Assembly: GCA_030386295.1 (NCBI GenBank)
Contig: JANQAO010000003.1
Coordinates: 48,114-112,113 of the forward strand
Length of the DNA: 64,000 nt
Direction: 5' to 3'
DNA from: Candidatus Doriopsillibacter californiensis
Lineage (GTDB): Bacteria; Pseudomonadota; Gammaproteobacteria; Tethybacterales; Persebacteraceae
Each line of letters opens with the position of its first letter. Positions within the stretch are counted from its first letter, which is position 1. The translations under genes and the position numbers were made by a program. This document shows, in pieces, positions 1,956 through 37,885 of the stretch. The notes beneath the pieces are model-generated. The model saw only the letters and a program-made list of their open reading frames with translations, did no database searches and was not told the origin of the DNA.

Positions 1956-2615
1956 GTGTCATTTTCTGGTGATCCCCGAACGGAAAAACGGCGGAGCTAC
2001 ATGATGACGGAGCATCATTTGGCAGCTAACTTTACGGTTGTTAATGGTAAGGCGACTTTTATTCCCATGTTTTACGGTGCTGATCCGGGAGTTATCGGAA
2101 ATGGTGCTTATGCTGGGCATGATTTTTTATCTCACGAAGGCAATCGCGGTTTGGAATTGATTAACGCAATGAATAATGAACAGAAAAAAACAGCAATAGC
2201 TGCTGAAGAGGTTATGTTTAATAAATTTGGTGCTCTTGCGTTTCGTGGTCTGGGAACAAAAGATAAGCCGATTAAAGCGTAAGGAATCAGTGCAAAGAAC
2301 TTGTTTGATGAACAGCAAAAATTACTTTGGATATTGATTGAAGAATACGTGCGTAATGCTGATTTTGATGTGGCCAAAGCTCAATTGGAAAAAATACAAA
2401 AGGGAGGTCTTGATAAATTAAGTTTTATGTGGATGGGGCCGACTGACGGCGTTGAAAATATTTTTTATCAGATTTACGAACCTGCAATTTTAATTAATTT
2501 CGTTAACCAGCATACTGGGTTTGACTGGAATACCCTCCCTCACATTATTATCCGTGACTCGTTTAACGATTATGGTGAGAATTGGCTTCAGAGGCATATT
2601 TTAGAAGAGCACTAA
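1956..2615 (+). pseudogene. conserved hypothetical protein interrupted by an in-frame TAA (or two small ORFs)
   Basis: ORFs 1956-2282 and 2301-2615 lie in the same frame (both start coordinates are 0 mod 3). Only TAA at 2280-2282 separates them. The first starts with GTG and the second with TTG. Confidence 0.35.
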
Positions 2616-3577: not shown

Positions 3578-4795
3578 TTAATTTTTTGATGTGTGCAAAT
3601 GAGAAAATTTTTCTTTCCATTTAATGCAGCGTTGTGCATCACGCTCTTCGTAGATACGGGTGGCAGAAGGAAGATCTAACGTTAACTCATTTTCTCGATT
3701 TTCACCCCAATCCGTTAATCGCATAGTGTACCAATTCGTTATCCCACCTGGAGGTGCAGACTCAAATTTTGGGAAATCAGGATTTCCCCCGGTTTCGGTC
3801 AACCAAGTTTCTGCCAGTCGTGGATTGAGAACCATAGCGCGTGCTAAACCTACCATATCAGCTGCGCCACTAGCTACTGCCTCTATTGCTTGCTCGCGTC
3901 TTTTGAATCCCCCAGTCACCATCAGTGGCACGCGAGTTATCTCTTTTGCGAGTTGGGCAAAATTAATAAAGTATGGTTCTTGGCTTGAGCTGTCAGAGCT
4001 TGCTTTTGCCATAGGGATATAAGTTCCTCCGCTAATATCAATCAGATCTATAGATGTTTGATCGAGCAGGCGTACTACTTTTAAAGCATCAGTTTCTGTC
4101 AAGCCTCCTTCTATTTTATCTGTCGAATTAATCCTAATTCCGATAGGAAACGACGGACCAACGGCATGCCGTACTTCGTCTATTATTTCGATTACTATAC
4201 GGCATCGTGATTCGATTGAACCTCCGTAGCCATCATTCCGGTAATTAAACAGTGGACATAGAAATTGACTGAGTAGAAAACCATGTCCGGCATGTATTTG
4301 AACGCCGCTAAATCCGGCAGTCTGTGCATGTAATGCAGCTTTTGCATACATATCAGGTAATTTTTTTATTTCTTTAATTGACATGCCAGCACATTGAAGA
4401 CCTTCAATATTAAGGGCGGATGGCCCCTTGGGACAACTAATGGGCAGGTGTGAAAGAGCTCCAGCATGACCGAGTTGTACCCAGAGATGAGCGCCCTCAA
4501 TCACGCCTCTCTTGGTAAGTGACCGTATCATTTTTTGATCTGTCTCTGTACTGAGAACTAAATTTCCCGGTTTTTCAGGAAATCGAGGATCTACTTGGAC
4601 TTCACCGATAAAAGAAACAGCGGCTCCGCCTTCTGCCCATCTTTCGTAAAGTCGAATCTGTGCTTTGGTGGGGTCACCCTCACCATTCCCAAGCGAATCC
4701 GACATGGCAGACTTGGCTAAGCGATTTTTAAAAATAGCGCCACAAGGAAGTTTTAGCAAACTTTGAAGAATATGAATGGAATTTGAGTTTTTCAT
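3578..4795 (-). CDS. NADH:flavin oxidoreductase, Old Yellow Enzyme family
   Basis: 405 aa. It has the OYE motif HAGHGFLLSQFL, an N-terminal LPCGAIFKNRLAKSAM and a TIM-barrel FMN-site pattern. Confidence 0.85.
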   Translation of the reverse strand: MKNSNSIHILQSLLKLPCGAIFKNRLAKSAMSDSLGNGEGDPTKAQIRLYERWAEGGAAVSFIGEVQVDPRFPEKPGNLVLSTETDQKMIRSLTKRGVIEGAHLWVQLGHAGALSHLPISCPKGPSALNIEGLQCAGMSIKEIKKLPDMYAKAALHAQTAGFSGVQIHAGHGFLLSQFLCPLFNYRNDGYGGSIESRCRIVIEIIDEVRHAVGPSFPIGIRINSTDKIEGGLTETDALKVVRLLDQTSIDLIDISGGTYIPMAKASSDSSSQEPYFINFAQLAKEITRVPLMVTGGFKRREQAIEAVASGAADMVGLARAMVLNPRLAETWLTETGGNPDFPKFESAPPGGITNWYTMRLTDWGENRENELTLDLPSATRIYEERDAQRCIKWKEKFSHLHTSKN

Positions 4796-4933: not shown

Positions 4934-6135
4934 TTAGTTTGAATATTTCATATACCAATCGCAAAATTGTTTGCAGTGACGCTCGTCATCAGAAAAAACA
5001 CCTGGGCGATAGTAATCAGAAAGAGCTCCTTGAGTCATTGATTTACAAAGATTTTCGTCTTCAGTGTTTGTTACTTTCCACACACTAGTCATATGCTTAC
5101 GCTCAAAATCTTTTCCTTCTACTGCATCTTTATGCACAATCCAACTGGTATAAAGAACACACTTATATTCATTCAAAGGTAATATCCAATTAGTTGCAAT
5201 ATGGTCGCTGACAAAATGAATCCATCCGTTTGGATTGAACCAAAACGACAATGTTCCTTCGTACTCTTTGTGAGGACCTATCAACCTTGCGCTACACGGT
5301 TTTCCATCAAAACTAGTTGATTTATGGCCTTTCTTCATCGGATATCTGGCAATACGACAACTATCATGTGTATCAAACGCCTGTTCTTTCCACAGCAATC
5401 CTTTCGCCTCCCATTTTTTGGTTGCTTGGTTGAATATTTTTAAATATTCAAGGTCTTTGCTTCCATTAAAACTATTATCACTAAATAGCTTGAGTAGTCC
5501 CTTATTGTTAGCCTGACAATGACAGCATTCGCGATTGTTGAGCATTACACCAACCAATTAGCATCGATTTCTACACGCTCATGGTAGGCTAGTTTATATT
5601 CGTCTTTACCGAGGTGATAATGATGGATGTATGGATTAATCAGTTTTTGTACATTCGTCATGTCTTCTTTACATTGTTCATCATTTTCGAGACAAGCAAA
5701 CAATAAACCTTCAACTTCTTGAAGTGGAACACTATCAAGTTTGCAGGATTTTCCTGCATCGGAATACATAAATTCTTTAGGCATTCTTGCTGCATGGCGT
5801 AGGCTACCATCATTTAGGTTATAAGACCATTGATGGTTAGGGCAGACAATTGATGGTTAGGGCAGACAATTGATGAAGAACATTTGCCAACATTTTTTGT
5901 CACCAATCGAGCGCTTTAATGGGCACAGCGATTTACATGCATCGAATTACGCCATCAGTACCGTGTATTAAAAAATGAGAATTTTCTAGTAATTCAAAAG
6001 ATAAATAATTCATTTTTTCAGGTACATCTCCACGAGTTCCTACAAAAAACCATTTATTATGAAATAACTGTTTCATCCGGTTCGTATCAAACAACACTTC
6101 TTTAGGAAATGAATGTCCATAGCGGTATTCCTCTT
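4934..6135 (-). pseudogene. Rieske [2Fe-2S] non-haem iron oxygenase alpha subunit, inactivated
   Basis: The minus-strand translation gives Rieske box 1 (VNRCAH) followed by a stop at 5916-5918. Box 2 (IVCPNHQWSYNLNDGSL) is split by a 20-bp tandem duplication. The downstream ORFs 5545-5784 and 4934-5557 overlap out of frame and carry an ENxxExxH-like stretch (NNRECCHCQ). I count at least four lesions. Confidence 0.6.
5831..5870. repeat. perfect 2 x 20 bp tandem direct repeat (TGATGGTTAGGGCAGACAAT)
   Basis: Read directly. Copies at 5831-5850 and 5851-5870 are followed by a partial third copy (TGATG). The repeat lies inside the Rieske box-2 coding region. Since 20 bp is not a multiple of 3, it shifts the frame. 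Confidence 0.9.
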
Positions 6136-6163
6136 TTTTTCAGTAATTAATTGTAATTAGCTA

Positions 6164-7086
6164 TTAGGGAGATTTAATGAGGTTGTCTATATTGACTACG
6201 TTTTCGGCCATGCGGGCGGATTCGGCATCAATCACTTTTCCGTCTAGCTGTGCGGCACCGCGTCCTTCTGCTGCTGCGCTTTTTAGCGCTGCTAAAATCG
6301 CTTGGGCGCGGCAACTTCCGCCGGCGGTGGAGAAAATACCTCGTTGGCAAGTGAGATTTGTGAAGGATGAATCGCCCATTTACCTTCAATACCTAAAGAC
6401 GCCGCACGGCGGGCAGCTAGCATGAAAGAATCTGAATCGTTAAAATCTCCAAAAGGACCGTCAATTGCGCGTAATCCATAGGCGCGGCAAGCGGCCGTCA
6501 TACGTGACAGTGCAAAATGCCATTGGTCGCCCGGATAATCAGGATTAAGTTCGCCAATAACTACTGTGCGTGCACGACAACTAGCAGCATAATCGGTGAC
6601 GCCAAAGTGTAACGCTTCCAGTCGCCGGCTGGATTGGGCAATGGCTTCAACGTTGGCCATTCCCAGCGCGGTTTCTATCAGTGCTTCCAAAACGATGCGG
6701 TGAGTGTATCCCATTGCCTGTTCAATTTGGTTGCAGAGCATGTCCACCGCATACAAATCAGCGGCAACGCCAACTTTGGGTACTAAAATTGTGTCTAAAT
6801 GGGCCCCTGCCTGCTCTAACGTATCAACTACATCACGGTACATATAGTGTGTATCCAGACCATTAATGCGAATGGAAATAGTTTTTCCCTTTGCTTTCCA
6901 GTCAATATCATTGAGTGCCTGAATAATGTTGCTGCGCGCCTTTTCTTTGTCTGCCGGTGCTACGGCGTCTTCCATATCCAAAAACACATAATCGGCGGCA
7001 CTGTCTGCTGCTTTTTGAATCATTGCTGGCATGGAGCCCGGCCGCTGCAGGCGGGTTTGTGCTGGTTGAAAAATTGTGTGACTCAT
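6164..7086 (-). pseudogene. HpcH/HpaI-family citrate lyase beta (CitE) / malyl-CoA lyase-like protein, frameshifted near the 3' end
   Basis: The 264 aa ORF 6292-7086 matches a CitE-like protein up to WAIHPSQISLANEVFSP. The expected C-terminus (AQAILAALKSAAAEGRGAAQLDGKVIDAESARMAENV) continues in another frame, in ORF 6164-6379. The frames are consistent with a single missing C in a C/G-rich run near 6310-6330. Confidence 0.5.
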
Positions 7087-7371: not shown

Positions 7372-8685
7372 TTAATATCGGTAATGTACTGGCTTAAACG
7401 GCCCTTCTTTTTTTACCCCAATATAAGCAGATTGTTTGTCACTCAACGTGGTGAGATTGGCGCCGACATGTGGCAGGTGTAATAACGCTACTCGTTCATC
7501 TAAATGTTTGGGTAGTACATGTACATCCACTGCATATTTGCTTGGATTGGTAAATAATTCAATCTGCGCCATGACTTGATTGGTGAAAGATGCCGACATG
7601 ACAAAACTTGGGTGACCGGTAGCGCAGCTGAGATTTACCAGCCGTCCTTCGGCGAGCAAAATAATGCGCTTGCCATCAGCAAATACAACGTGGTCTACCA
7701 GTGGCTTGATATTTTCAAAGCGGCATTTCTTGCGCAGTTCGGCAACTTGAATTTCGGAATCAAAATGACCGATGTTGCACAAAATTGCGTTGTTTTTCAT
7801 GCGTCGTGCATGTTCAACAGTAACAATATCCACATTGCCGGTGGCTGTAACAATAATGTCAGCTTGCTCACAGGCATCATCTACGGTTACCACGCGATAT
7901 CCCTCCATCGCTGCCTGCAGCGCACAGATCGGGTCTATTTCGGCAATCCACACTGTAGCACCCAACCCACGCAGCGACTGTGCCGAACCTTTGCCAACGT
8001 CGCCATAGCCGCAAACAATGGCGATTTTTCCGGCTACCATTACATCAGTTGCCCGTTTAATGCCGTCTACCAAAGATTCTCGGCAGCCGTACAGATTGTC
8101 AAATTTGGATTTGGTCACCGAGTCATTGACGTTAAACGCCGGACACTTGAGGGTGTTTTTGTTGTGCATGTCGTAGAGTCGTTGAACACCGGTGGTCGTT
8201 TCTTCGGAAACGCCCAGCAATTTGTCGGCTAATTCGGGATGCTTTTCGTGTATAAAAAAAGTAGCATCACCGCCGTCGTCCAATATCATGTTCGGGCTCC
8301 AGCCGCCGGGACCAAAAAAAGTGCGTTCTAAGCATTCTTCATATTCCGCTTCGGTTTCACCTTTCCACGCAAAAACGGGAACGCCGGTGGCGGCAATAGC
8401 AGCGGCGGCGTGGTCTTGTGTGGAAAAAATATTGCACGATGACCAACGCACACTAGCGCCTAACGCAGTAAGCGTTTCAATCAATACGGCGGTTTGTACT
8501 GTCATGTGTAGACAACCAGTAATGCGAGCTCCGTCCAATGGTTTATCGGCGGTCATTTCGCGGCGTAATTGCATGAGGCCAGGCATTTCAGTTTCGGCAA
8601 TGGTAATTTCGCGACGCCCCCAGTCGGCAAGCGAAATGTCGGCAACAGCGTAATCCTGTTCAATATTTGTGGCAGGCAAAGTCAT
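7372..8685 (-). CDS. ahcY: S-adenosyl-L-homocysteine hydrolase (adenosylhomocysteinase)
   Basis: 437 aa. It has the N-terminal [17 protein letters not shown] and an NAD-binding GYGDVGKG motif. Similarity to SahH runs the full length. Confidence 0.95.
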
Positions 8686-9009: not shown

Positions 9010-9084
9010 GGGCGCTTAGCTCAGCGGGAGAGCGTCGTCCTTACACGGCGAATGTCGGGGGTTCGAAACCCTCAGCGCCCACCA
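9010..9084 (+). tRNA. tRNA-Val (anticodon UAC)
   Basis: A cloverleaf folded by hand. The acceptor stem is GGGCGCT/AGCGCCC, the anticodon stem TCGTC/GGCGA, the loop CTTACAC, the T-loop TTCGAAA and the end CCA. Confidence 0.9.
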
Positions 9085-10232: not shown

Positions 10233-13100
10233 ATGAACAATCTCCCCGCTTTTGAAAAACACGCCAAACAAGAACACAAATATACTACCTGCTACATGTG
10301 TGCCTGCCGTTGTGGGGTGCGAGTAACGCTTGAAGATGGCAAAATTCGTTTTGTCCAAGGCAATCCCAATCATCCTGTCAATCGCGGGGTGCTATGCGGC
10401 AAAGGCAATGCCGCCATAATGAAGCAATATTCACCTGCTAAATTGCGAGCTCCTCTCATGCGCAAGCCGGGCAGTGAGCGTGGTAGCGGTGAATTTGTGG
10501 AAGTGTCGTGGGAACAAGCGATGGATACACTGACTCAGCGATTAGCTACCATTCGTGCTGACGATCCTAACAAACTGGCATTTTTTACAGGGCGTGACCA
10601 AATGCAAGCGCTCACTGGGTTATGGGCGACGCAGTTTGGTACACTCAATTGGGCAGCGCATGGTGGGTTTTGTTCGGTTAACATGGCAGCTGCTGGGTTG
10701 CTCACTCACGGTTATTCGTTTTGGGAATTTGGCGAACCTGATTGGGAGCAAACCAAATATTTTATGCTTTGGGGAGTGGCCGAAGATCACGCTTCCAACC
10801 CCATCAAAATTGGATTGAAAAAACTTAAAGAGCGCGGTGTCAAAATCGTTGCGATTAATCCAGTGCGCACAGGGTACCAGGCAATTGCCGATGAATGGGT
10901 GCCAATTACTCCCGGCGGTGACGGTGCTTTGGCACTGGCATTTATCCACGTATTACTGAGCGAACGGCGTATTGATGAGGAATTTTTAATTAGATACACC
11001 AATCTATCATGGTTGGTAGATGACGAAGGTCTTTTTGTACGCGACAGCGATGGTCGCCCATTGGCGTGGTGTTTAGAAAATAATGTGGTGATGGATGCGC
11101 AAAAATGTGACATTTGTCCGGCATTAGTTGGAGAATACACTCTTGCTGACGGCAGGTCTGTGCGTACTGCCATGACTTTGGCAATGACACAATATTTAGA
11201 TGAATCGAACTCGCCGGAAGCTATGACGGCGCACTGTGGTGTGCCGGCGGCAACTATTCGCCGCCTCGCGCGCGAGCTTGCCAATGTGGCTTTTTCACAG
11301 CCGGTGGTAGTGAATACGCCGTGGATAGATAGTGCCGGAAGGCAACACGAATCGTTTGTTGGGAGGCCAGTCTCTATGCACGCGATGCGTGGCGTGTCAG
11401 CGCATAGCAACGGCTTTCAAAGTTGTCGCGCTATTCACTTTTTGCAAGCGCTTTTGGGAAGTATGGATTGTCCGGGTGGGCACTTGGCTAAACCTCCGTA
11501 TCCGAAGCATCCACCAGCGGTACCCAAACCAGCTAACCGCAGTGCGTCTGGACAACCACTGTCGGCACCACCGCTTGGTATTCCGCGTGGACCGGAAGAT
11601 TTGGCGGTGGACGCCGCCGGTAAACCATTGCGGATTGATCACGCTTTTTCATGGGACGCGCCACTATCGGCACACGGTGCCATGCATATGGTTATTGCCA
11701 ACGCGGCTCGTAAAAATCCGTACGCCATTGATACTTTAATGATTTTTATGGCGAATCTGGCGTGGAATTCTTCCATGAATACGGACGGTACTGTCGCCAT
11801 GCTCACCGCCAAAGAAGACAACGGCGATTACACCATTCCATTTATTGTGGTGAGTGACGCTTTTCATTCCGAAATGGTGAATTATGCCGATTTGGTAATT
11901 CCTGACACTACTTATTTAGAGCGTCATGACACCATCTCTATGTTAGATCGTCCTATTTCCGAACCGCACGCTGCTTGTGACGCGATTCGCGCACCGGTGG
12001 TGGAGCCGCAATATAATACTCGTCCGTGGCAGGAGGTGTTGGTAGAGTTGGCAGGGCGATTGCAATTTCCAGTTTTTACCGGTGAAAATGGCGCGCCACG
12101 CTACGCTGATTACAAGGATTTTATTACTCGCTGGGAAAAAGCTCCTGGCATTGGTTTTTTGGCTGGTTGGCGGGGAGAAAACGGTGACGAACCTCTGCGG
12201 GGAGCGCCTAATCCTGACCAATGGCAGCGATATATTGATAATGAATGCTTTTTTCGGGAAGAGTTGCCACCATCAACGCGTTATTTTCGCTTTGCCAATC
12301 GTGATTATTTGCAATATGCCAAACGTGCCGGATGGACAGAAAGCGATGCTCCGATAGTGATTGAGCTATACAGCGAAACCCTGCGAAAATTTCAGCGCGC
12401 CGGAGAGGGAATGGGTGAACACGTTCCACCTGAAGAATACCAACGTCGCCGCTTGCGCGAGTATTGCCGACCGTTACCATTTTACTATCGTCCGTTAGAG
12501 CAAGCACGGCAGGATGGCGATAGTTATCCATTTTATGCCGTTACTCAACGACCTATGTTTATGTATCATTCGTGGGATTCTCAAAATGCGTGGTTGCGCC
12601 AAATTGCTGCTGACAACCATATTCACATTAATCGCACTCGTGCTGCTGAAATGGGTATTGCTGACGATGATTGGGTCTGGCTGTCGTCGCGCATTGGTAA
12701 AGTGGCGGCGCGCGCACGTTGTATGGACGGCGTAGCTGCTGATACGGTATGGACGTGGAATGCCATTGGTAAAGGTGCGGGTGCTTGGGGGCTGGCAGCA
12801 AACGCCAATGAGAGCGTGGAAGGATTTTTATTAAACAGCCTTATTGGTGAGTGGTTGCCGCCGGTAAACGATGAGTCACCGCTTAGTAACAGTGATCCAA
12901 TTACCGGTCAAGCGGCGTGGTATGACTTGCGAATCAATATTACTAAAATGCGCGCCGAGGAAATTACCGCTTTATCGCACTCGTCGGCATTTGCTACACT
13001 ACCCAATATGGCGCAAGAAAATGAGAAACCGTTGCGCTACATTGCGGGTTCTGCCGTTAATTTGCATCGCACATTTCTTGATACATTATTCCGTAAATAA
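10233..13100 (+). CDS. molybdopterin (Mo-bisPGD) oxidoreductase catalytic subunit, Psr/Phs/SoeA-like, no Tat signal
   Basis: 955 aa. The N-terminus carries a CYMCACRCG...C [4Fe-4S] motif (C-x2-C-x3-C-x27-C) and FVQGNPNHPVNRGVLCGKG. There is no twin-arginine leader. No FeS or NrfD-like partner genes lie downstream. Confidence 0.7.
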   Translation: MNNLPAFEKHAKQEHKYTTCYMCACRCGVRVTLEDGKIRFVQGNPNHPVNRGVLCGKGNAAIMKQYSPAKLRAPLMRKPGSERGSGEFVEVSWEQAMDTLTQRLATIRADDPNKLAFFTGRDQMQALTGLWATQFGTLNWAAHGGFCSVNMAAAGLLTHGYSFWEFGEPDWEQTKYFMLWGVAEDHASNPIKIGLKKLKERGVKIVAINPVRTGYQAIADEWVPITPGGDGALALAFIHVLLSERRIDEEFLIRYTNLSWLVDDEGLFVRDSDGRPLAWCLENNVVMDAQKCDICPALVGEYTLADGRSVRTAMTLAMTQYLDESNSPEAMTAHCGVPAATIRRLARELANVAFSQPVVVNTPWIDSAGRQHESFVGRPVSMHAMRGVSAHSNGFQSCRAIHFLQALLGSMDCPGGHLAKPPYPKHPPAVPKPANRSASGQPLSAPPLGIPRGPEDLAVDAAGKPLRIDHAFSWDAPLSAHGAMHMVIANAARKNPYAIDTLMIFMANLAWNSSMNTDGTVAMLTAKEDNGDYTIPFIVVSDAFHSEMVNYADLVIPDTTYLERHDTISMLDRPISEPHAACDAIRAPVVEPQYNTRPWQEVLVELAGRLQFPVFTGENGAPRYADYKDFITRWEKAPGIGFLAGWRGENGDEPLRGAPNPDQWQRYIDNECFFREELPPSTRYFRFANRDYLQYAKRAGWTESDAPIVIELYSETLRKFQRAGEGMGEHVPPEEYQRRRLREYCRPLPFYYRPLEQARQDGDSYPFYAVTQRPMFMYHSWDSQNAWLRQIAADNHIHINRTRAAEMGIADDDWVWLSSRIGKVAARARCMDGVAADTVWTWNAIGKGAGAWGLAANANESVEGFLLNSLIGEWLPPVNDESPLSNSDPITGQAAWYDLRINITKMRAEEITALSHSSAFATLPNMAQENEKPLRYIAGSAVNLHRTFLDTLFRK

Positions 13101-13525: not shown

Positions 13526-15445
13526 CTAAGCAGCTTTTACTTCCTCATCACCGATATTCGAATTTTTCTTTTCGTCTGATTTTTCGTCTTCATCATCTTC
13601 TTCATCGTTATCTAGATCCGCCGGTGGCGTAGGAGGAGACTCCTGTGGCGGTTCTGGCGGGCGTCCTTCCATAATGGCGTTAATTTGCTTCTCATCTATG
13701 CTCTCCCAGTCCAATAATGCTTTTGTCATAACTTCTACTTTGTCACGATTATCTTCTAGCAGCTTTCGTGCGCGAGTATATTGATCGTCAATAATACGGC
13801 GAATCTCGGCGTCCACCTCGCGCATGGTAGTTTCAGATACTTGTCGCTGAGAAGAAATGGAACGTCCCAAAAATACTTCGCCTTCATCTTCACTGTACAC
13901 CATAGTGCCCATATTTTTGCTCATGCCCCACTGTGTCACCATTCGTCTCGCCATTGTCGTGGCGCGTTCAAAGTCGTTAGAGGCGCCGGTAGTCATTTGA
14001 CTCATAAACAGCTCTTCAGCTATACGTCCAGCCAGTAAAACACAAATATTGCCCAAGATTTGGGATTCAGTCATGTTGTAGCGATCTTCGGCTGGCAATT
14101 GCATAGTTACACCTAATGCTCGCCCTCGTGGAACGATAGTAACTTTGTGTACTGGATCGGTTTCAGGTAATAGTCGCGCGACAACGGCATGTCCTGACTC
14201 GTGATAGGCGGTGTTTTTTCGTTCTTTTTCTGGCATAACAATGGAACGACGTTCGGCACCCATGATAATTTTTTCTTTGGCGAACTCAAAATCAGTCATG
14301 CGTACGATTTTGCGTTTGCAGCGCCCAGCATACAGCGCTGCTTCGTTTACTAGATTGGCCAAGTCGGCGCCAGCAAAGCCCGGCGTACCACGAGCTACCA
14401 CTTTGGCATCTACATCACGACCAATAGATACCTTGCGCATGTGCACGAGCAAGATTTCTTCACGCCCACGAATATCTGGCAGTGGCACTACCACTTGCCG
14501 GTCAAAGCGTCCGGGGCGCAATAATGCTGGATCCAATACATCAGGTCGGTTGGTGGCAGCAATAATGATGACGCCAGTGTTTTCTTCAAATCCATCCATC
14601 TCAACTAATAGCTGATTGAGTGTTTGCTCACGCTCATCATTACCACCACCAAGTCCGGTACCACGCTGGCGACCAACGGCGTCAAGTTCGTCTATAAAAA
14701 CGATGCACGGCGCACTTTTTTTGGATTGTTCAAACATGTCGCGCACACGAGAAGCGCCGACCCCTACGAACATTTCCACAAAATCAGAACCGGAAATAGA
14801 AAAGAAAGGCACTTTTGCCTCGCCGGCAATCGCGCGTGCTAGCAACGTTTTTCCAGTTCCCGGGCTACCTACCATCAGCACGCCGCGCGGGATTTTGGCG
14901 CCCAGTTTGCGAAAACGTCCGGGCTTGCGCAAAAATTGAACTAATTCACTGACTTCGTTTTTTGCTTCTTCACAGCCGGCTACGTTTTCAAATGTCACAC
15001 GATTTTCATTTTCGTCCATGACTCGAGCGCGACTTTTGCCAAATGAAAAAGCACCGCCACGTCCGCCACCTTGCATACGCTGCATAAAAAATATCCACAC
15101 GCCGATAAGCAATAGCATGGGAAACCAAGAAACGAAAATAGTGAAAAGAAAAGATCTTTCTTCTTCTGGAGTGGCTTCCACTTCCACGCCTGCTTTGCGC
15201 AAGTCAGACGCCATAAACACATCGCTGGGCGCGTGGGCAGTGACAATTTCGTTGGTTTCTGTGCGCCCCTTTAATTCAGAGCCATCAATTTTGACGCGTA
15301 CAAACAGCCCCTCTTCGGCGCGACGCATAAACTCAGAGTAGGGGATGCTGTCATCGCCAATATTGCCACGTAATTGGCCAAACAAAAAAACGACGCCCAT
15401 GAAAAGCATCGTCCATATAATAAAGGTCCTGATTGCCGGATGCAT
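13526..15445 (-). CDS. ftsH: ATP-dependent zinc metalloprotease FtsH
   Basis: 639 aa with N-terminal TM helices, an AAA Walker A motif GSPGTGKT, a HEXXH protease motif (HESGHAVV) and an acidic C-terminal tail. Confidence 0.95.
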
Positions 15446-22288: not shown

Positions 22289-22364
22289 GCCGCCATAGCT
22301 CAGCTGGTAGAGCAGCTGATTTGTAATCAGTTTGTCGGGAGTTCAAATCTCTCTGGCGGCACCA
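22289..22364 (+). tRNA. tRNA-Thr (anticodon UGU)
   Basis: A cloverleaf folded by hand. The acceptor stem is GCCGCCA/TGGCGGC, the anticodon stem GCTGA/TCAGT, the loop TTTGTAA and the T-loop TTCAAAT. It ends in ACCA. Confidence 0.9.
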
Positions 22365-28880: not shown

Positions 28881-29765
28881 TTAATGAGCTTTCTTTTTTG
28901 CACGTGGATGAGCAAGGTCATACGTTTTTGCCAGATTTTGAAAATCTAAGCGCGTGTATATTTGTGTGGAAGTAATATCACGGTGGCCAAGTAGGTCTTG
29001 TGTGGCACGTAAATCACCGCTGGATTGCAAAAAATGTGAGGCGCAAGAATGCCGCAAAACATGCGGGCTAACTTGTCCAGCCATACCTAGACGAGCGGCG
29101 CGGGTGGATAGGCGTTGTTGTACTGTGCGAACGTTGAGACGACCACCGCGGCGATTAACAAACAACGCCGTTTCATTGTGATTTGCGGCACTTGCACGCG
29201 CCGTAAGCCAGCAGGATAAGGCTTTTTGAGCTACCGTGCCGGCGGGAACAACGCGACCTCGTCCTCCTTTTCCGCGCTGCACGTGAACCATGCCGGCGGA
29301 TATGTCGCTCACATTTAAGGCAGTCATTTCTCCTACGCGTAAGCCGGTAGAGTACAGTAATTCAAACATAGCATCATCACGCCATTTGAGCCAACCACTG
29401 CCTGTATCGTCGTTTAGCAAAAAAGCTGTTTTGTCCGGTGTCAGTGCCCGCGGCAGGCGTCCCTGTTTTTTTGGGGCGCGTAGACTGTGTGCTGGATTGT
29501 TCCGAATGTCACCGGTTTTGAGTAAATAATTAAAAAATAAACGCCAAGTAGATAGCCGTCGCGCCGTGGATGCCGGACTCATGCCGTGTTGTGTGGCTAG
29601 CAGGTGGCGCATATTTTGCGGTGTGATGTCGGTGAGCGGCATGGGTAGCGCATTCTGTAATATCTCCAAGTCTCGGCGATATGCTTCTACCGTATGCACT
29701 GACAGTCGTCGCACAGCGGCTGTTTCGTGCACAAATGCAGCTGACGCTTCTTTTAGAGTATTCAT
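28881..29765 (-). CDS. xerC: tyrosine site-specific recombinase XerC
   Basis: It has the R..HxxR..Y catalytic residues (LRHSCASH, TQIYT). It overlaps the upstream DUF484 gene by 4 bp, as in the yigA-xerC arrangement. Confidence 0.85.
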   Translation of the reverse strand: MNTLKEASAAFVHETAAVRRLSVHTVEAYRRDLEILQNALPMPLTDITPQNMRHLLATQHGMSPASTARRLSTWRLFFNYLLKTGDIRNNPAHSLRAPKKQGRLPRALTPDKTAFLLNDDTGSGWLKWRDDAMFELLYSTGLRVGEMTALNVSDISAGMVHVQRGKGGRGRVVPAGTVAQKALSCWLTARASAANHNETALFVNRRGGRLNVRTVQQRLSTRAARLGMAGQVSPHVLRHSCASHFLQSSGDLRATQDLLGHRDITSTQIYTRLDFQNLAKTYDLAHPRAKKKAH

Positions 29766-30295
29766 ATTACCGCCGCCAGCAATTGCGCTAATCGGCGGCA
29801 AAATGTGTCATCACCAGCCGAAAATTTTTTGCCGGAAAGGGTGGTAAGGATTACTAATCCCACTGCTTTCCTTCCGCGCTTAAGAGGCAAATGATAGTAC
29901 CCCTCGGTTTTTGCCGCTGAGTTGTCCAATGGTAACTTATCGGCACGACCGCCAGCAGGTAAGCGCGCTGTTTTTGTTGCTAATGCTTTCATATCATTAT
30001 TAAAAATCATAATACGACAACTGCCAGCTTTCATTCCTCGGCGTATCAGTGTTTCGGTTTTTTGTAACCATTCAGTATCGCGGCGAATGAGTAACAGCGA
30101 CACGTCATGCATCATGGTAACAATGGCATCATTGTCAGCGGCAATATTTCGTGCGTCGGTTAACTGACGTTGCAGTAAGCGATTTTTCTCTCGTAGAGTG
30201 GTTATTTCTCTAGCGCGAATGTCAAGTGATTGTGCCATTACTTTATTGTATCGGGTCAGCAGGCTGAGGCAAAAAATAATTTTAGATTTTTGCAA
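29762..30295 (-). CDS. DUF484 (YigA-like) protein
   Basis: 177 aa matching the coiled-coil and C-terminal parts of YigA. It lacks the first 60 or so aa of E. coli YigA. It occupies the conserved position upstream of xerC. Confidence 0.55.
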   Translation of the reverse strand: MQKSKIIFCLSLLTRYNKVMAQSLDIRAREITTLREKNRLLQRQLTDARNIAADNDAIVTMMHDVSLLLIRRDTEWLQKTETLIRRGMKAGSCRIMIFNNDMKALATKTARLPAGGRADKLPLDNSAAKTEGYYHLPLKRGRKAVGLVILTTLSGKKFSAGDDTFCRRLAQLLAAVI

Positions 30296-33901: not shown

Positions 33902-34172
33902 ATTCATGAAATAAAGAGTAGTAATATTGAGCGTACGAATAGATAGCCTTATGTTTATGAAAAAAAGCGGACGAATTCAATAACCATCGCTTAGATAAGT
34001 ATGTTTGTGACCGCGATTACGGGTAACAAATTTGTCGCGTTTTTTGAAAATTTTGTTTTTTACTTTATTTTAAATAGTGTGGTATAAATGGTAAGTAAGT
34101 GTATTAGATGCATTTGTGGTGTTGTGTCTAGTAATATTTTGTGGTATCGCAATAAAAAGAAGGAGAGAGCAA

Positions 34173-34643
34173 ATGGCAATATCCGTTTCCTTGGCAGTTA
34201 ACGGTAAGCAAGTAGAAGGCGAGGTAAGTCCTAATACTTTGTTAGTAGAATATTTACGTGAACATGCGCGATTGACGGGCACTCATATAGGATGCGATAC
34301 TAGCCAATGTGGTGCCTGTGTAGTACATGTCAATGGGCAATCAATTAAATCTTGTACCATGTTAGCAGTTCAAGCTAACGGCACTGTAATAACTACTATT
34401 GAAGGACTTGCCGATGGCGATACACTCCATGCAGTGCAGGCGGCGTTTAAAGAATGTCACGGATTGCAGTGCGGTTTTTGCACTGCCGGTATGGTGATGA
34501 GTACCGCTGATTTACTGAATAAAAACCCCAATCCATCTGATGAAGAAATTCGCAATTGGCTAGAGGGCAATATCTGTCGTTGTACCGGCTATCAAAATAT
34601 TGTTAAAGCGGTACGCCATGCGGCTGCGCAGCTAAGAGGATGA
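34173..34643 (+). CDS. coxS: (2Fe-2S)-binding small subunit of a xanthine dehydrogenase-family molybdoenzyme (CoxS-like)
   Basis: Two [2Fe-2S] motifs: a plant-type CDTSQCGAC and a second CGFCTAGM...CRCTGY. Confidence 0.85.
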
Positions 34644-34702
34644 GCGGAAATTTTGTCGTATCCAAAAATTAAAATAATACATTCCTGCAGAGGAGGACGT
34701 AA

Positions 34703-37084
34703 ATGAGCACACAAGGCATCGGGGCTTCAGTCAAACGAAGCGAAGACATGCGATTCTTAACTGGGCGTGGCAATTACACGGATGATATCGTTCGACCACA
34801 TCAGGCATATGCGTATATTTTACGATCGCCTCATGCGAGTGCAAAAATTCGTGGTATTGACACGGTAGCCGCCAAGTCTGCTGCTGGCGTTATTGCTGTT
34901 TATACAGGAGTAGACCTGCAATGTGGTTCCATTCCCTGTGGTTGGTTAGTTAATAATGCCGATGGTTCACCAATGAAGGAGCCGGCACATCCGCCGTTGG
35001 CACAAGGTGCAGTGCGGCACGTGGGCGACCAAGTGGCTGTGATTATTGCTGAAACATTGGCACAGGCTAAAGCCGCTTCCGAGTTAATTGAAGTAGATTA
35101 TGACGTGTTGCCTGCCGTAGTGGATATGGAAAAAGCTGTTGCTGGTGGTCAAGCTGTACACGAAGAAGCGCCAGATAATTTATGTTACGATTGGGTGTTA
35201 GGTGATGATGTTGCCAGTGTAGACGCCGTAATCGCCGCGTCTACACACCAAGTATCTTTGCGGTTGACTAACAATCGTCTTGTTCCTAACGCCATGGAGC
35301 CACGCGCTGCTATTGGTGAGTACGATTTGTCGGCGGATTCGTATACGCTTTATACCACTAGCCAAAATCCACATGTAATTCGTCTGCTTATGGGTGCTTT
35401 TGTATTACAAATTCCCGAACACAAATTGCGTGTTGTGTCACCGGATGTAGGTGGTGGATTTGGATCCAAAATTTATCATTATGCTGAAGAAGCCATTGTT
35501 ACTTGGGCTGCTAAGCAAGTGCGGCGGCCGGTCAAATGGACGGCGGATCGATCTGATTCTTTTGTTAGTGATGCTCATGGCCGCGATCACATCACTAATG
35601 TAACGTTAGGCGTTGACTCCGACGGAAAATTTACAGCGCTTAAGGTAGAAACTAAGGCCAATCTCGGTGCCTACTTGTCTACTTTTTCTACCTGTGTACC
35701 GACGTATTTGTATGCAACGTTGCTGGCAGGCGTGTACACCACACCAAAAATTTATTGCAACGTTAAAGCGGTTTTCACCAATACCGTACCGGTTGATGCT
35801 TATCGTGGTGCTGGGCGCCCAGAAGCCACTTATTTAATTGAGCGTATTGTTGACAAAGCAGCACGACAAATCGGTATAGACAGAGTGGAGTTGCGGCGTA
35901 AAAATTTTATTCCCAAAGAAGCCTTTCCTTATCAAACACCAGTAGCTTTGCAATACGACTCAGGGGATTATCATGCTTCTTTGGAGCAGGCACTCAAAGA
36001 AGCTGATTGGAATGGTTTTGCTGCACGTAAAGCAGAATCCGCTCAAAACGGCAAATTGCGCGGTATTGGTGTGTCTACTTATGTTGAAGCATGTGGTATT
36101 GCGCCATCGGCGGTAGTCGGTTCGCTAGGCGCTCGTGCTGGGCTATTTGAAGCGGCTAATGTGCGGGTTAATCCTACGGGCTCGGTATCGGTGTTTACTG
36201 GCAGTCACAGTCATGGGCAAGGGCACGAAACTACCTTTGCACAAATTGTTTCTGACAAATTGGGAATTCCCTTTGAGAATGTAAATATTGTGCACGGTGA
36301 TACCGCTAGTGTGCCTTTTGGTATGGGGACGTATGGCTCGCGTTCGCTGGCGGTAGGTGGAGAGGCTATCATGCGTGCGCTCAATAAAATTACTGAAAAA
36401 GCCGGAAAAATTGCTGCACATATTATGGAAGCAGATGCCGGTGACGTTGAGTTTGCTGACGGTAATTTTACTGTCAAAGGTACCGATAAGTCGATGGCTT
36501 TTGGTGAAGTTTCGCTAGCCGCTTATGTGCCGCATAACTTTCCACACAAATCATCGCACGATGACTCCAACGGTTTGGAGCCGGGTCTAGAAGAGCAAGC
36601 ATTTTATGACCCACTCAATTTCACTTATCCTGGTGGTTGCCATATTTGCGAAGTAGAAGTAGATCCCGATACCGGCAAGGTCAAGGTAGTGAACTTTACT
36701 GCTGTAGATGATGTAGGGCAGGTAATTAATCCGATGATTGTGGAAGGTCAAATACAAGGTGGTGTGGCACAGGGTATTGGTCAAGCACTTTTGGAGCAAG
36801 CGGTGTACGATGAAAACGGCCAATTACTGACCGGTTCGTACATGGATTACACCATGCCACGCGCCGATGACGTGCCTAATATCCAAGTATCTAATACGGT
36901 TACGTTGTGTACACACAATTCGTTAGGAGTTAAGGGGTGCGGAGAAGTCGGTGCTATCGGTTCACCACCAGCGGTTATTAACGCAGTACTGGATGCACTG
37001 GAAGAAAAAGGTGTGAAAGATATTTCTATGCCTGCCACGTCTTATCGGGTTTGGCAGGCGATGCAAGATGCAAAAGTTAATTAA
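34703..37084 (+). CDS. coxL: molybdopterin-binding large subunit, form II CoxL-like (AYRGAGR class)
   Basis: 793 aa. The active-site loop reads [11 protein letters not shown], the form II signature, not the form I VAYRCSFR. Confidence 0.85.
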
Positions 37085-37099
37085 CAGGAGGATATCATC

Positions 37100-37885
37100 A
37101 TGAATAATTTTGACTATCATAAGCCTTCAACAGTTGAAGAAGCGGTGCATCTGCTGACCGATGGCGCAAAAGCATTGGCCGGTGGTATGACTTTGTTACC
37201 GACGATAAAGCAAGGGTTGGCTGCACCTGATGCGTTGGTCGATTTGTCGACTATTGAAGCGTTGGTCGGCATTCGTGAACATCACGATAAGGGAGTGGTG
37301 ATTGGTGCTATGACAACGCATGCGACAGTATCTAGTTCTGATTTGGTGCGTGAAAAAATTCCATCGTTAGCATCGTTAGCTAGTGGAATCGGTGATGCAC
37401 AAGTTCGACATCGCGGCACCATTGGTGGCTCGCTGGCTAACAATGATCCTGCGGCGGATTATCCGGCGGCATTGTTGGGATTAGGCGGCTCGGTGCATAC
37501 TAATAAGCGTACTATTGCCGCTGATGATTTTTTTGACGGGTTGTTTTCAACAGCATTGGAAGATGATGAAGTTATCGCTCACGTACATCTTCCAATACCG
37601 CAATACGCCGTTTATGTAAAATTTCCACAACCGGCATCACGTTATGCACTGGTTGGTGTTTTTATTGCCCAAATTAATGGTGGCGTGCGAGTGGCAGTAA
37701 CTGGTGCTGGTTCAGATGGTGTGTTTCGTGCCCAATCATTGGAAACGGCATTGAACCAAAATTTTTCTGCTGCTGCTTTATCGGGAGTGCAGGAAAATGC
37801 AGCAGAACTGATGAGTGATTTGCACGGCTCTGCTGCTTATCGCGCCCACTTAATAACAATTTTGGCTCAACGGGCATTGAATTAA
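37100..37885 (+). CDS. coxM: FAD-binding medium subunit (CoxM-like)
   Basis: 261 aa with an FAD-binding domain (ALAGGMTLLPTIK, GTIGGSLANNDPAADY). The order S-L-M is typical of form II operons. Confidence 0.85.
   Translation: MNNFDYHKPSTVEEAVHLLTDGAKALAGGMTLLPTIKQGLAAPDALVDLSTIEALVGIREHHDKGVVIGAMTTHATVSSSDLVREKIPSLASLASGIGDAQVRHRGTIGGSLANNDPAADYPAALLGLGGSVHTNKRTIAADDFFDGLFSTALEDDEVIAHVHLPIPQYAVYVKFPQPASRYALVGVFIAQINGGVRVAVTGAGSDGVFRAQSLETALNQNFSAAALSGVQENAAELMSDLHGSAAYRAHLITILAQRALN

Follow-up and report, generated by a model that had tools for sequence, protein, structure and literature searches.

A dead, full-length Rieske oxygenase gene with multiple lesions in the nudibranch symbiont Candidatus Doriopsillibacter californiensis

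Results

An inactive Rieske oxygenase gene of full length

We analysed a 64,000-nucleotide stretch of DNA from Candidatus Doriopsillibacter californiensis Df01 (contig JANQAO010000003.1, positions 48,114 to 112,113; hereafter the window, numbered from its first base) and found on its minus strand a Rieske oxygenase gene that is real and full-length but dead. The pseudogene occupies 4934–6142: it begins at an in-frame TGA that precedes the conserved N-terminal motif and ends with the original TAA stop at 4934–4936. Compared with intact orthologues that are 74–79% identical to it, the gene has suffered at least six lesions that disable it and, in addition, the in-frame loss of one codon, and these changes lie in sequence that was confirmed as real. 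We are highly confident that the locus is a recently inactivated, non-functional gene for a Rieske non-haem-iron oxygenase of Group V, the quaternary-amine type.

The original prediction, made from the bases and a list of open reading frames (ORFs), had named the locus a Rieske oxygenase gene, and profile searches agree. They were run on a repaired translation in which one copy of a 20-bp repeat was removed and X was set at the stop and at both frame changes. This translation matches the Pfam families Rieske (PF00355, 47.5 bits against a cut-off of 20.3) and Ring_hydroxyl_A (PF00848, 73.7 bits against 24.9), and it thus has the N-terminal Rieske domain and the C-terminal catalytic domain of a Rieske oxygenase alpha subunit. 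A protein search returned 114 relatives, the closest of which are intact proteins of 396–417 residues with 70–79% identity; the match to one of these intact proteins (P0001) reaches 79% identity across 99% of the length.

Neither metal site is complete in the present sequence. The cluster ligands C-A-H and C-P-N-H can still be read, but the CxH...CxxH pattern is not contained in one open frame, being split by a TAA at 5916–5918 and by the 20-bp duplication. The 2-His-1-carboxylate site (H-x4-H plus Asp) keeps its first His and its Asp column, and its second His is Asn. The locus is therefore an ancestral member of the Rieske oxygenases and a present-day pseudogene.

A 20-bp tandem duplication in the second cluster-binding box

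Lesions were located by aligning the DNA of three intact orthologues (L009, L010/L002 and L001) to the locus and by a protein alignment with 12 homologues. At 5831–5870 on the minus strand, within Rieske box 2 (CPNH), the DNA alignment has a 20-base gap in all three orthologues. This gap corresponds to a perfect tandem duplication: 5831–5850 and 5851–5870 both read TGATGGTTAGGGCAGACAAT on the plus strand, and the 20-mer has no further copy anywhere in the window. In the downstream copy, the box 2 Cys is encoded at 5842–5844 and the His at 5833–5835. Tandem Repeats Finder scores the array at 97, the next best in the 64 kb being 44, and the chance expectation for an exact adjacent 20-mer repeat in a sequence of this length is ~6e-8 (64000 x 4^-20). 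When one copy is removed, ...SSIVCPNHQ runs into WSYNLNDGSLRHAARMPKEFMYSDAG... / WSYNLNDGSLRHAARMPKEF... in a single frame. Direct reading, the repeat search and translation thus bear out the original prediction on two counts, namely that a 20-mer is perfectly repeated in box 2 and that deletion of one copy restores the frame into the catalytic ORF.

The flanks of the duplication suggest how it may have arisen. Identity at a period of 20 bases spans 5829–5875, and on the coding (minus) strand the unit starts with, and is trailed by, the 7-nt sequence CATCAAT. The reconstructed single-copy sequence, tCATCAATtgtctgccctaacCATCAATggtct, holds this 7-nt direct repeat with a 20-base period, and the DNA alignment shows that the repeat is missing from the closest orthologues. 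We infer replication slippage (slipped-strand mispairing) between the two CATCAAT repeats as the probable origin, because 7-nt repeats at a 20-base period would yield exactly the duplication that is observed.

Further lesions along the gene

At the 5' end (6095–6142, minus strand) the gene has no usable start. An in-frame TGA at 6140–6142 overlaps a run of seven A at 6134–6140, and translation of the frames finds no in-frame ATG, GTG or TTG between this TGA and a GTG at 6095–6097; the sole nearby ATG (6118–6120) is out of frame. Orthologues start ~13 codons before a conserved G-H-S-F-P.

Downstream, a 1-base deletion at 5935/5936 (minus strand; ATGGTA to ATGTA) forms a gap relative to all three orthologues and breaks the frame of the conserved segment IRCMVNRC, whose Met is kept in most homologues. 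Rieske box 1 follows at 5916–5927 (minus strand), with its Cys at 5925–5927 and its His at 5919–5921. On the coding strand H-V-N-R-C-A-H is followed by TAA at 5916–5918, in place of a Gln codon (CAA or CAG in orthologues) for a residue that is invariant in the protein alignment (CAHQSA, 12/12 homologues). A second 1-base deletion, at 5549/5550 (minus strand), falls in a Val/Ile/Thr codon of the segment ANWL(V/I/T)VM just before the catalytic motif and is placed there by both the DNA gap and the protein alignment. The stop after CAH and additional frameshifts near 5935 and at 5545–5557 had been proposed in the original prediction; minus-strand reading recovers the stop, and DNA alignment resolves the frameshifts into these two deletions.

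The catalytic motif E-C-C-H-C-Q-A-N-N lies at 5504–5530 (minus strand), and its Glu (5528–5530), Cys-X-X-Cys pair and first His (5519–5521) are preserved. In place of the second His of H-C-x-x-N-H the gene encodes Asn (AAT, 5504–5506); this position is His in 12/12 homologues, in 3N0Q and in the proline-betaine demethylase Stc2 (3VCA), where it aligns with His209. From what is known of Rieske oxygenases and the Stc2 structure, we take His209 and Asp360 of Stc2 to be iron ligands. The Asp codon at 5057–5059 (minus strand) is intact, aligns with Asp360, the presumed carboxylate ligand, and lies in an invariant column. The Stc2 register was fixed by the published numbering of Cys202/Cys205 and Trp353 (PMC10952381). 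Between these two sites one codon, for Asp or its equivalent, is lost in frame at 5260/5261 (minus strand; KEYDEGT to KEY-EGT), as seen from a 3-base gap relative to the three orthologues; the residue is present in 12/12 homologues.

The 5' lesion, both 1-base deletions, the TAA, the duplication and the His-to-Asn replacement are each expected to be disabling. Because the lesions are so numerous, no reading of the fragments could bind a [2Fe-2S] cluster. The iron-ligand replacement, the codon loss, the absent start with its TGA and two broken accessory genes nearby come in addition to the lesions first listed.

The lesions are present in separately assembled datasets

Df01 is a mantle (skin) symbiont of the nudibranch Doriopsilla fulva (PMC10262491), and the NusA encoded in the window matches the protein of 'Candidatus Persebacteraceae bacterium Df01' at 100% identity. 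Its genome was obtained from one animal, from pools of 10–100 cells isolated by fluorescence-activated cell sorting, each separately lysed, amplified by multiple displacement amplification (MDA) and Illumina-sequenced (PMC10262491). The co-assembly comprises 1,532,643 bp, is 99% complete and showed only 94 single-nucleotide polymorphisms and 26 insertions or deletions over 14 sorts (PMC10262491).

Using exact-protein look-ups with the neighbouring old yellow enzyme (OYE) and AhcY, we retrieved contigs from five Joint Genome Institute (JGI) datasets and from four Logan-assembled Sequence Read Archive (SRA) runs. Wherever they overlap the window, by up to 18,685 bases, the contigs are 100% identical to it, all lesions included. 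The duplication is spanned by seven contigs from seven datasets (four JGI, three Logan/SRA), which are identical base for base. Predicted gene lengths differ among the datasets (246 vs 264 aa; 245 vs 216 aa), and we rejected strain variation as an explanation, these differences arising from different gene callers on identical DNA.

The recovery of the genome from MDA-amplified sorted cells raises the question of whether the duplication and frameshifts were made during amplification or assembly and the true gene is intact. MDA does make chimeras, and one was found in this gene: a Logan contig (L024, SRR31738093) ends in an inverted junction inside the pseudogene, with window position 6125 joined at contig positions 8127–8350 to inverted 5761–5984, a typical MDA-chimera signature and not a genomic arrangement. 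Such chimeras are inversions and rearrangements, unlike the recurring set of a nonsense codon, two 1-base deletions and a missense change that is found here, and the small number of differences among sorts also speaks against an artefact. The wells were lysed, amplified and sequenced one by one. We exclude assembly or amplification as the source of the lesions because the separately amplified and separately sequenced sorts and two assembly pipelines agree, and an intact true gene is extremely improbable. The possibility that resequencing would reveal a single 20-bp copy and no stop, raised with the original prediction, is answered by the seven identical contigs.

The same contigs bear on a different reading, in which the 20-bp repeat is a reversible on/off switch (phase variation) of a gene that can still be used. 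Short tandem duplications can collapse through slippage, and the unit here is flanked by a 7-nt repeat. Restoring one copy would nevertheless leave the box 1 stop, two frameshifts, no start codon and a lost iron ligand, and the single-copy allele is absent from every contig inspected. A pattern accepting either 20 or 40 bases between the flanks gave zero matches in JGI metagenome contigs. We give this switch practically no credence and regard the gene as dead.

Timing of the inactivation

To place the loss in time we compared rates of change. The ratio of non-synonymous to synonymous substitution rates (omega, or dN/dS) is 0.048 for the pseudogene and its closest orthologue and 0.052 for a pair of intact orthologues. 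In every pair except the closest, synonymous sites are saturated, and dating by dN/dS was dropped. In Tajima-type relative-rate tests on amino acids, the pseudogene lineage has 28–33 unique replacements against 18–27 in the intact sisters (p = 0.10–0.52); the excess is in the same direction throughout and is not significant. Three or four genuine positions of the pseudogene depart from otherwise invariant columns, compared with 0–3 per intact homologue. Thus, we conclude that strong purifying selection acted on the gene during nearly its whole history and that its inactivation is recent when measured against protein divergence, because omega is low and there is no significant excess of amino-acid change.

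Low omega might also be taken as a sign that fragments of the gene are still in use, either the 207-codon C-terminal ORF (4934–5557), as a catalytic or binding domain that stands alone, or the transcript, as a regulatory RNA. This ORF is long, was called as a gene by both pipelines and has a Ring_hydroxyl_A match. The low omega, however, stems from the long history that was shared before the inactivation. The fragment is without a Rieske domain, carries Asn where the iron-ligand His should be and starts with a TTG that has no evident ribosome-binding site, and Rieske oxygenases require both domains for head-to-tail electron transfer (PMC7948474). We therefore consider residual use very unlikely and retain the interpretation of a recently inactivated gene.

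The original prediction of decay at an early stage holds in that the gene is still full-length and shows no significant replacement excess; it fits less well with the at least six disabling changes that have already accumulated. The duplication had also been named as the causal lesion, and here we differ. With at least six independent disabling changes and clonal assemblies throughout, no lesion can be shown to be first or named causal, because the data come from a single, nearly clonal population in one host animal. In the sequence of events that we propose, selection would have lapsed, presumably through relaxed selection in the host-associated niche, and lesions would then have accumulated in the Rieske gene. 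This course of loss is ordinary reductive evolution of a small symbiont genome.

Relationship to quaternary-amine oxygenases

The repaired protein was compared with Rieske oxygenases of solved structure and with curated profile models, and similarity was found in both. The closest solved relatives over the full length are 3N0Q, an uncharacterised Ruegeria protein (E 3.4e-51), and Stc2 (3VCA, E 2.6e-50; 4QUP, E 3.1e-50). Aromatic-ring dioxygenases are far weaker, matching at E 1e-11 or weaker and in the Rieske domain only. The top NCBIfam model is GbcA (NF058607, an equivalog model). Its score of 247.1 bits falls below the curated cut-off of 670, and membership in the GbcA equivalog was rejected. 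Membership with the carnitine monooxygenase CntA was likewise rejected, there being no full-length similarity: the alignment (E 2e-15) covers residues 16–203 alone, in the N-terminal half.

The sequence E-C-C-H-C at 5516–5530 consists of a bridging Glu followed by Cys-X-X-Cys and is invariant in the subfamily. A bridging Glu directly before a Cys-X-X-Cys pair is a mark of the Group V (quaternary-amine) Rieske oxygenases (PMC10952381). The resemblance to GbcA and CntA noted in the original prediction therefore stands at the level of this Group V motif and does not extend to closest kinship: judged by sequence similarity, the nearest characterised relative is Stc2, not GbcA or CntA. The best statement that these comparisons allow is that the ancestral protein was a Group V Rieske oxygenase whose substrate was probably a betaine-like quaternary amine.

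Because of its homology to Stc2, CntA and GbcA, the intact enzyme can be assigned a putative role. A reductase would pass electrons to the [2Fe-2S] cluster and from there, via the bridging Glu, to a mononuclear iron with two His and one Asp as ligands, and this iron would oxidise an N-methyl group or adjacent carbon of a betaine-like osmolyte. A gene for an FNR/ferredoxin-type reductase was found beside the locus neither in the window nor in any relative examined.

Intact members of the subfamily share the motif N-N-R-E-C-C-H-C-x-x-N-H and occur in Tethybacterales-like symbionts, Ca. Thioglobus, roseobacters, Porticoccaceae, Cobetia, Zobellella and Pseudomonas. In Ca. Thioglobus, the orthologue lies among two Rieske paralogues, a gene of the dimethylsulfoniopropionate-lyase family and an acyl-CoA synthetase gene. 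In Pseudomonas benzenivorans, a 678-aa OYE/Fe-S flavoenzyme is encoded 3 kb upstream, with a second Rieske paralogue and a pyrroline-5-carboxylate reductase nearby; as a hint to the pathway the placement of this flavoenzyme is suggestive only. In the proline-betaine pathway, demethylation starts with a Rieske-type demethylase, and a flavin-dependent enzyme takes the second methyl group (PMC3950512). By analogy, a pairing of Rieske oxygenase and flavoenzyme in an N-demethylation pathway is plausible. Homarine catabolism (homABCDER) was considered and rejected, the text describing it naming no Rieske, old-yellow-enzyme/FMN or lyase component (PMC13236597).

Neighbouring genes and a parallel loss

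Directly downstream of the pseudogene, an intact gene at 3578–4795 (minus strand) encodes a 405-aa FMN oxidoreductase of the OYE family (Pfam Oxidored_FMN, E 4e-49), which may be a former pathway partner. The pairing of Rieske and OYE genes recurs only in the window and in genome L001, where a full-length 401-aa OYE counterpart lies near the intact Rieske gene in the order PriA, OYE, methyltransferase, Rieske. In a sister genome (L002/L010), PriA is followed by Rieske only. Comparison of these close metagenome-assembled genomes (MAGs; L001 7835–11167, L010 5712–9212) places the OYE gene and a TPMT-like methyltransferase gene as an insertion between priA and the intact Rieske gene.

Two accessory genes near the pseudogene are broken. 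Upstream of it, a CitE/HpcH-family lyase gene (6164–7086, minus strand) is frameshifted at ~6305–6315, with the final ~45 residues encoded in a different frame; once the frame is repaired, 283 instead of 241 of the 288 citE profile positions are covered, and the score is 168.5 instead of 138.8 bits. On the plus strand, a DUF3500 remnant (1956–2615) has an internal stop at 2280–2282 and matches Pfam positions 97–297 of 297, its N-terminal third being gone. In one SRA contig (L021, SRR31738098) 141 bp of this remnant are missing in frame (window 2073–2213), between two copies of ATGTTT, which is either a real microhomology-mediated deletion variant or an amplification artefact. The decay is concentrated in an accessory block of ~7 kb, and the other ~57 kb of the window hold intact, ordinary housekeeping genes.

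A trace of the same family was found in a 1.68-Mb MAG labelled 'Gammaproteobacteria bacterium' (L008, OZ251571.1), whose NusA is 54% identical to that encoded in the window. At ~4040–4195, in the spacer between the hydantoinase B gene of a hydantoinase A/B pair and a DAO-type flavoprotein gene, it has a 51-codon Rieske-family ORF. This ORF is MPKTESLAPNSYHSGYSF fused to AQNALSSYYRPEVFSDDEHHYKQFCDWYMKHPT, and in alignment it covers the family's first ~18 and last ~33 residues. The alignment indicates an independent loss of the same gene through an internal deletion of ~1 kb.

Several other features were noted in and beside the window. Its left end adjoins a Mu-like prophage at positions 14795–21218 of contig L015 (portal, Mu Gp36, baseplate J and P2 tail protein I), and a 472-aa ORF at 75–1493, with no family match, may be a prophage tail fibre. 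An intact 955-aa molybdopterin oxidoreductase (10233–13100, plus strand), with best models in the PhsA/DMSO (dimethyl sulfoxide)-reductase family far below their cut-offs, may belong to the sulfur metabolism stressed in the genome paper. At 34116–37885 (plus strand), an apparently intact three-gene cluster encodes a molybdenum hydroxylase of the xanthine-dehydrogenase/CO-dehydrogenase type, with a Fer2 small subunit, a 793-aa molybdenum-cofactor (MoCo) subunit and an FAD subunit. By nusA, 28881–30295 (minus strand) encodes a tyrosine recombinase of the phage-integrase family, which may be XerC/D or a mobile-element remnant, and a 177-aa ORF of no known family. Two tRNA genes (9010–9081 and 22289–22361) are the sole Rfam matches in the window.

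Discussion

The lesions, their recurrence across contigs and the similarity to Stc2 together describe a Group V Rieske oxygenase gene that was lost recently. Several points weigh against this interpretation. The assemblies all come from one host animal and are nearly clonal, and the pseudogene may not be fixed across the species. The SRA runs may derive from the same libraries as the JGI datasets, which would make them independent assemblies and not fully independent sequencing. The solved relatives behind the functional assignment are roughly one-third identical to the Rieske protein. Finally, we found no conserved neighbourhood around the intact orthologues, whose contexts differ in every lineage examined; the substrate, and the part of the OYE in any pathway, are uncertain because these neighbourhoods are not conserved.

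The pseudogene in the window and the deletion remnant in the related MAG L008 represent two stages in the loss of the same gene. For annotation, the consequence is that three adjacent accessory genes (Rieske, CitE-like and DUF3500) are dead, and the symbiont should not be annotated as capable of betaine-type oxidative demethylation. Pseudogenes are expected in small symbiont genomes, and the locus adds a clear example of a slippage duplication, to which we attach modest weight. It also draws attention to a subfamily of quaternary-amine Rieske oxygenases that has gone unstudied although it is common in marine bacteria, and whose substrate could be worth establishing. Tentatively, and with rather less than even confidence, we suggest that the intact relatives make up a Group V subfamily that is tightly conserved and uncharacterised, perhaps acting on a marine quaternary amine that has no assigned enzyme; the two independent losses would then mark a host-dependent change in osmolyte use.

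Among known systems, the closest comparison is with Stc2, the stachydrine (L-proline betaine) demethylase of Sinorhizobium meliloti (3VCA, 3VCP, 4QUP), and with 3N0Q, which are alike to the repaired protein across both domains. They share the Rieske CxH...CxxH, the motif N-N-R-E-C-x-H-C-x-x-N-H with its bridging Glu and Cys-X-X-Cys, and the Asp column. The relationship to Stc2 is nevertheless distant, the intact relatives forming a tight cluster of their own with members 50–79% identical. The gene described here also differs from Stc2 in being dead, with its second His replaced by Asn, and in having no adjoining gene for an HpbC/CntB-type reductase. The glycine betaine monooxygenase GbcA and the carnitine monooxygenase CntA have the same group-level architecture and the motif of Glu plus Cys pair, but the GbcA model scores below its cut-off and the CntA match is partial.

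As a pseudogene, the locus resembles those of other host-associated bacteria undergoing reductive evolution. Small insertions and deletions, a nonsense codon and a slippage duplication have accumulated in a catabolic gene that is accessory to the 1.53-Mb genome of a symbiont, neighbouring accessory genes are broken too, and a relative shows the later, deletion stage. Set against such bacteria nothing here is unusual, and within the window the decay is local, limited to the accessory block of ~7 kb beside a prophage, rather than genome-wide.

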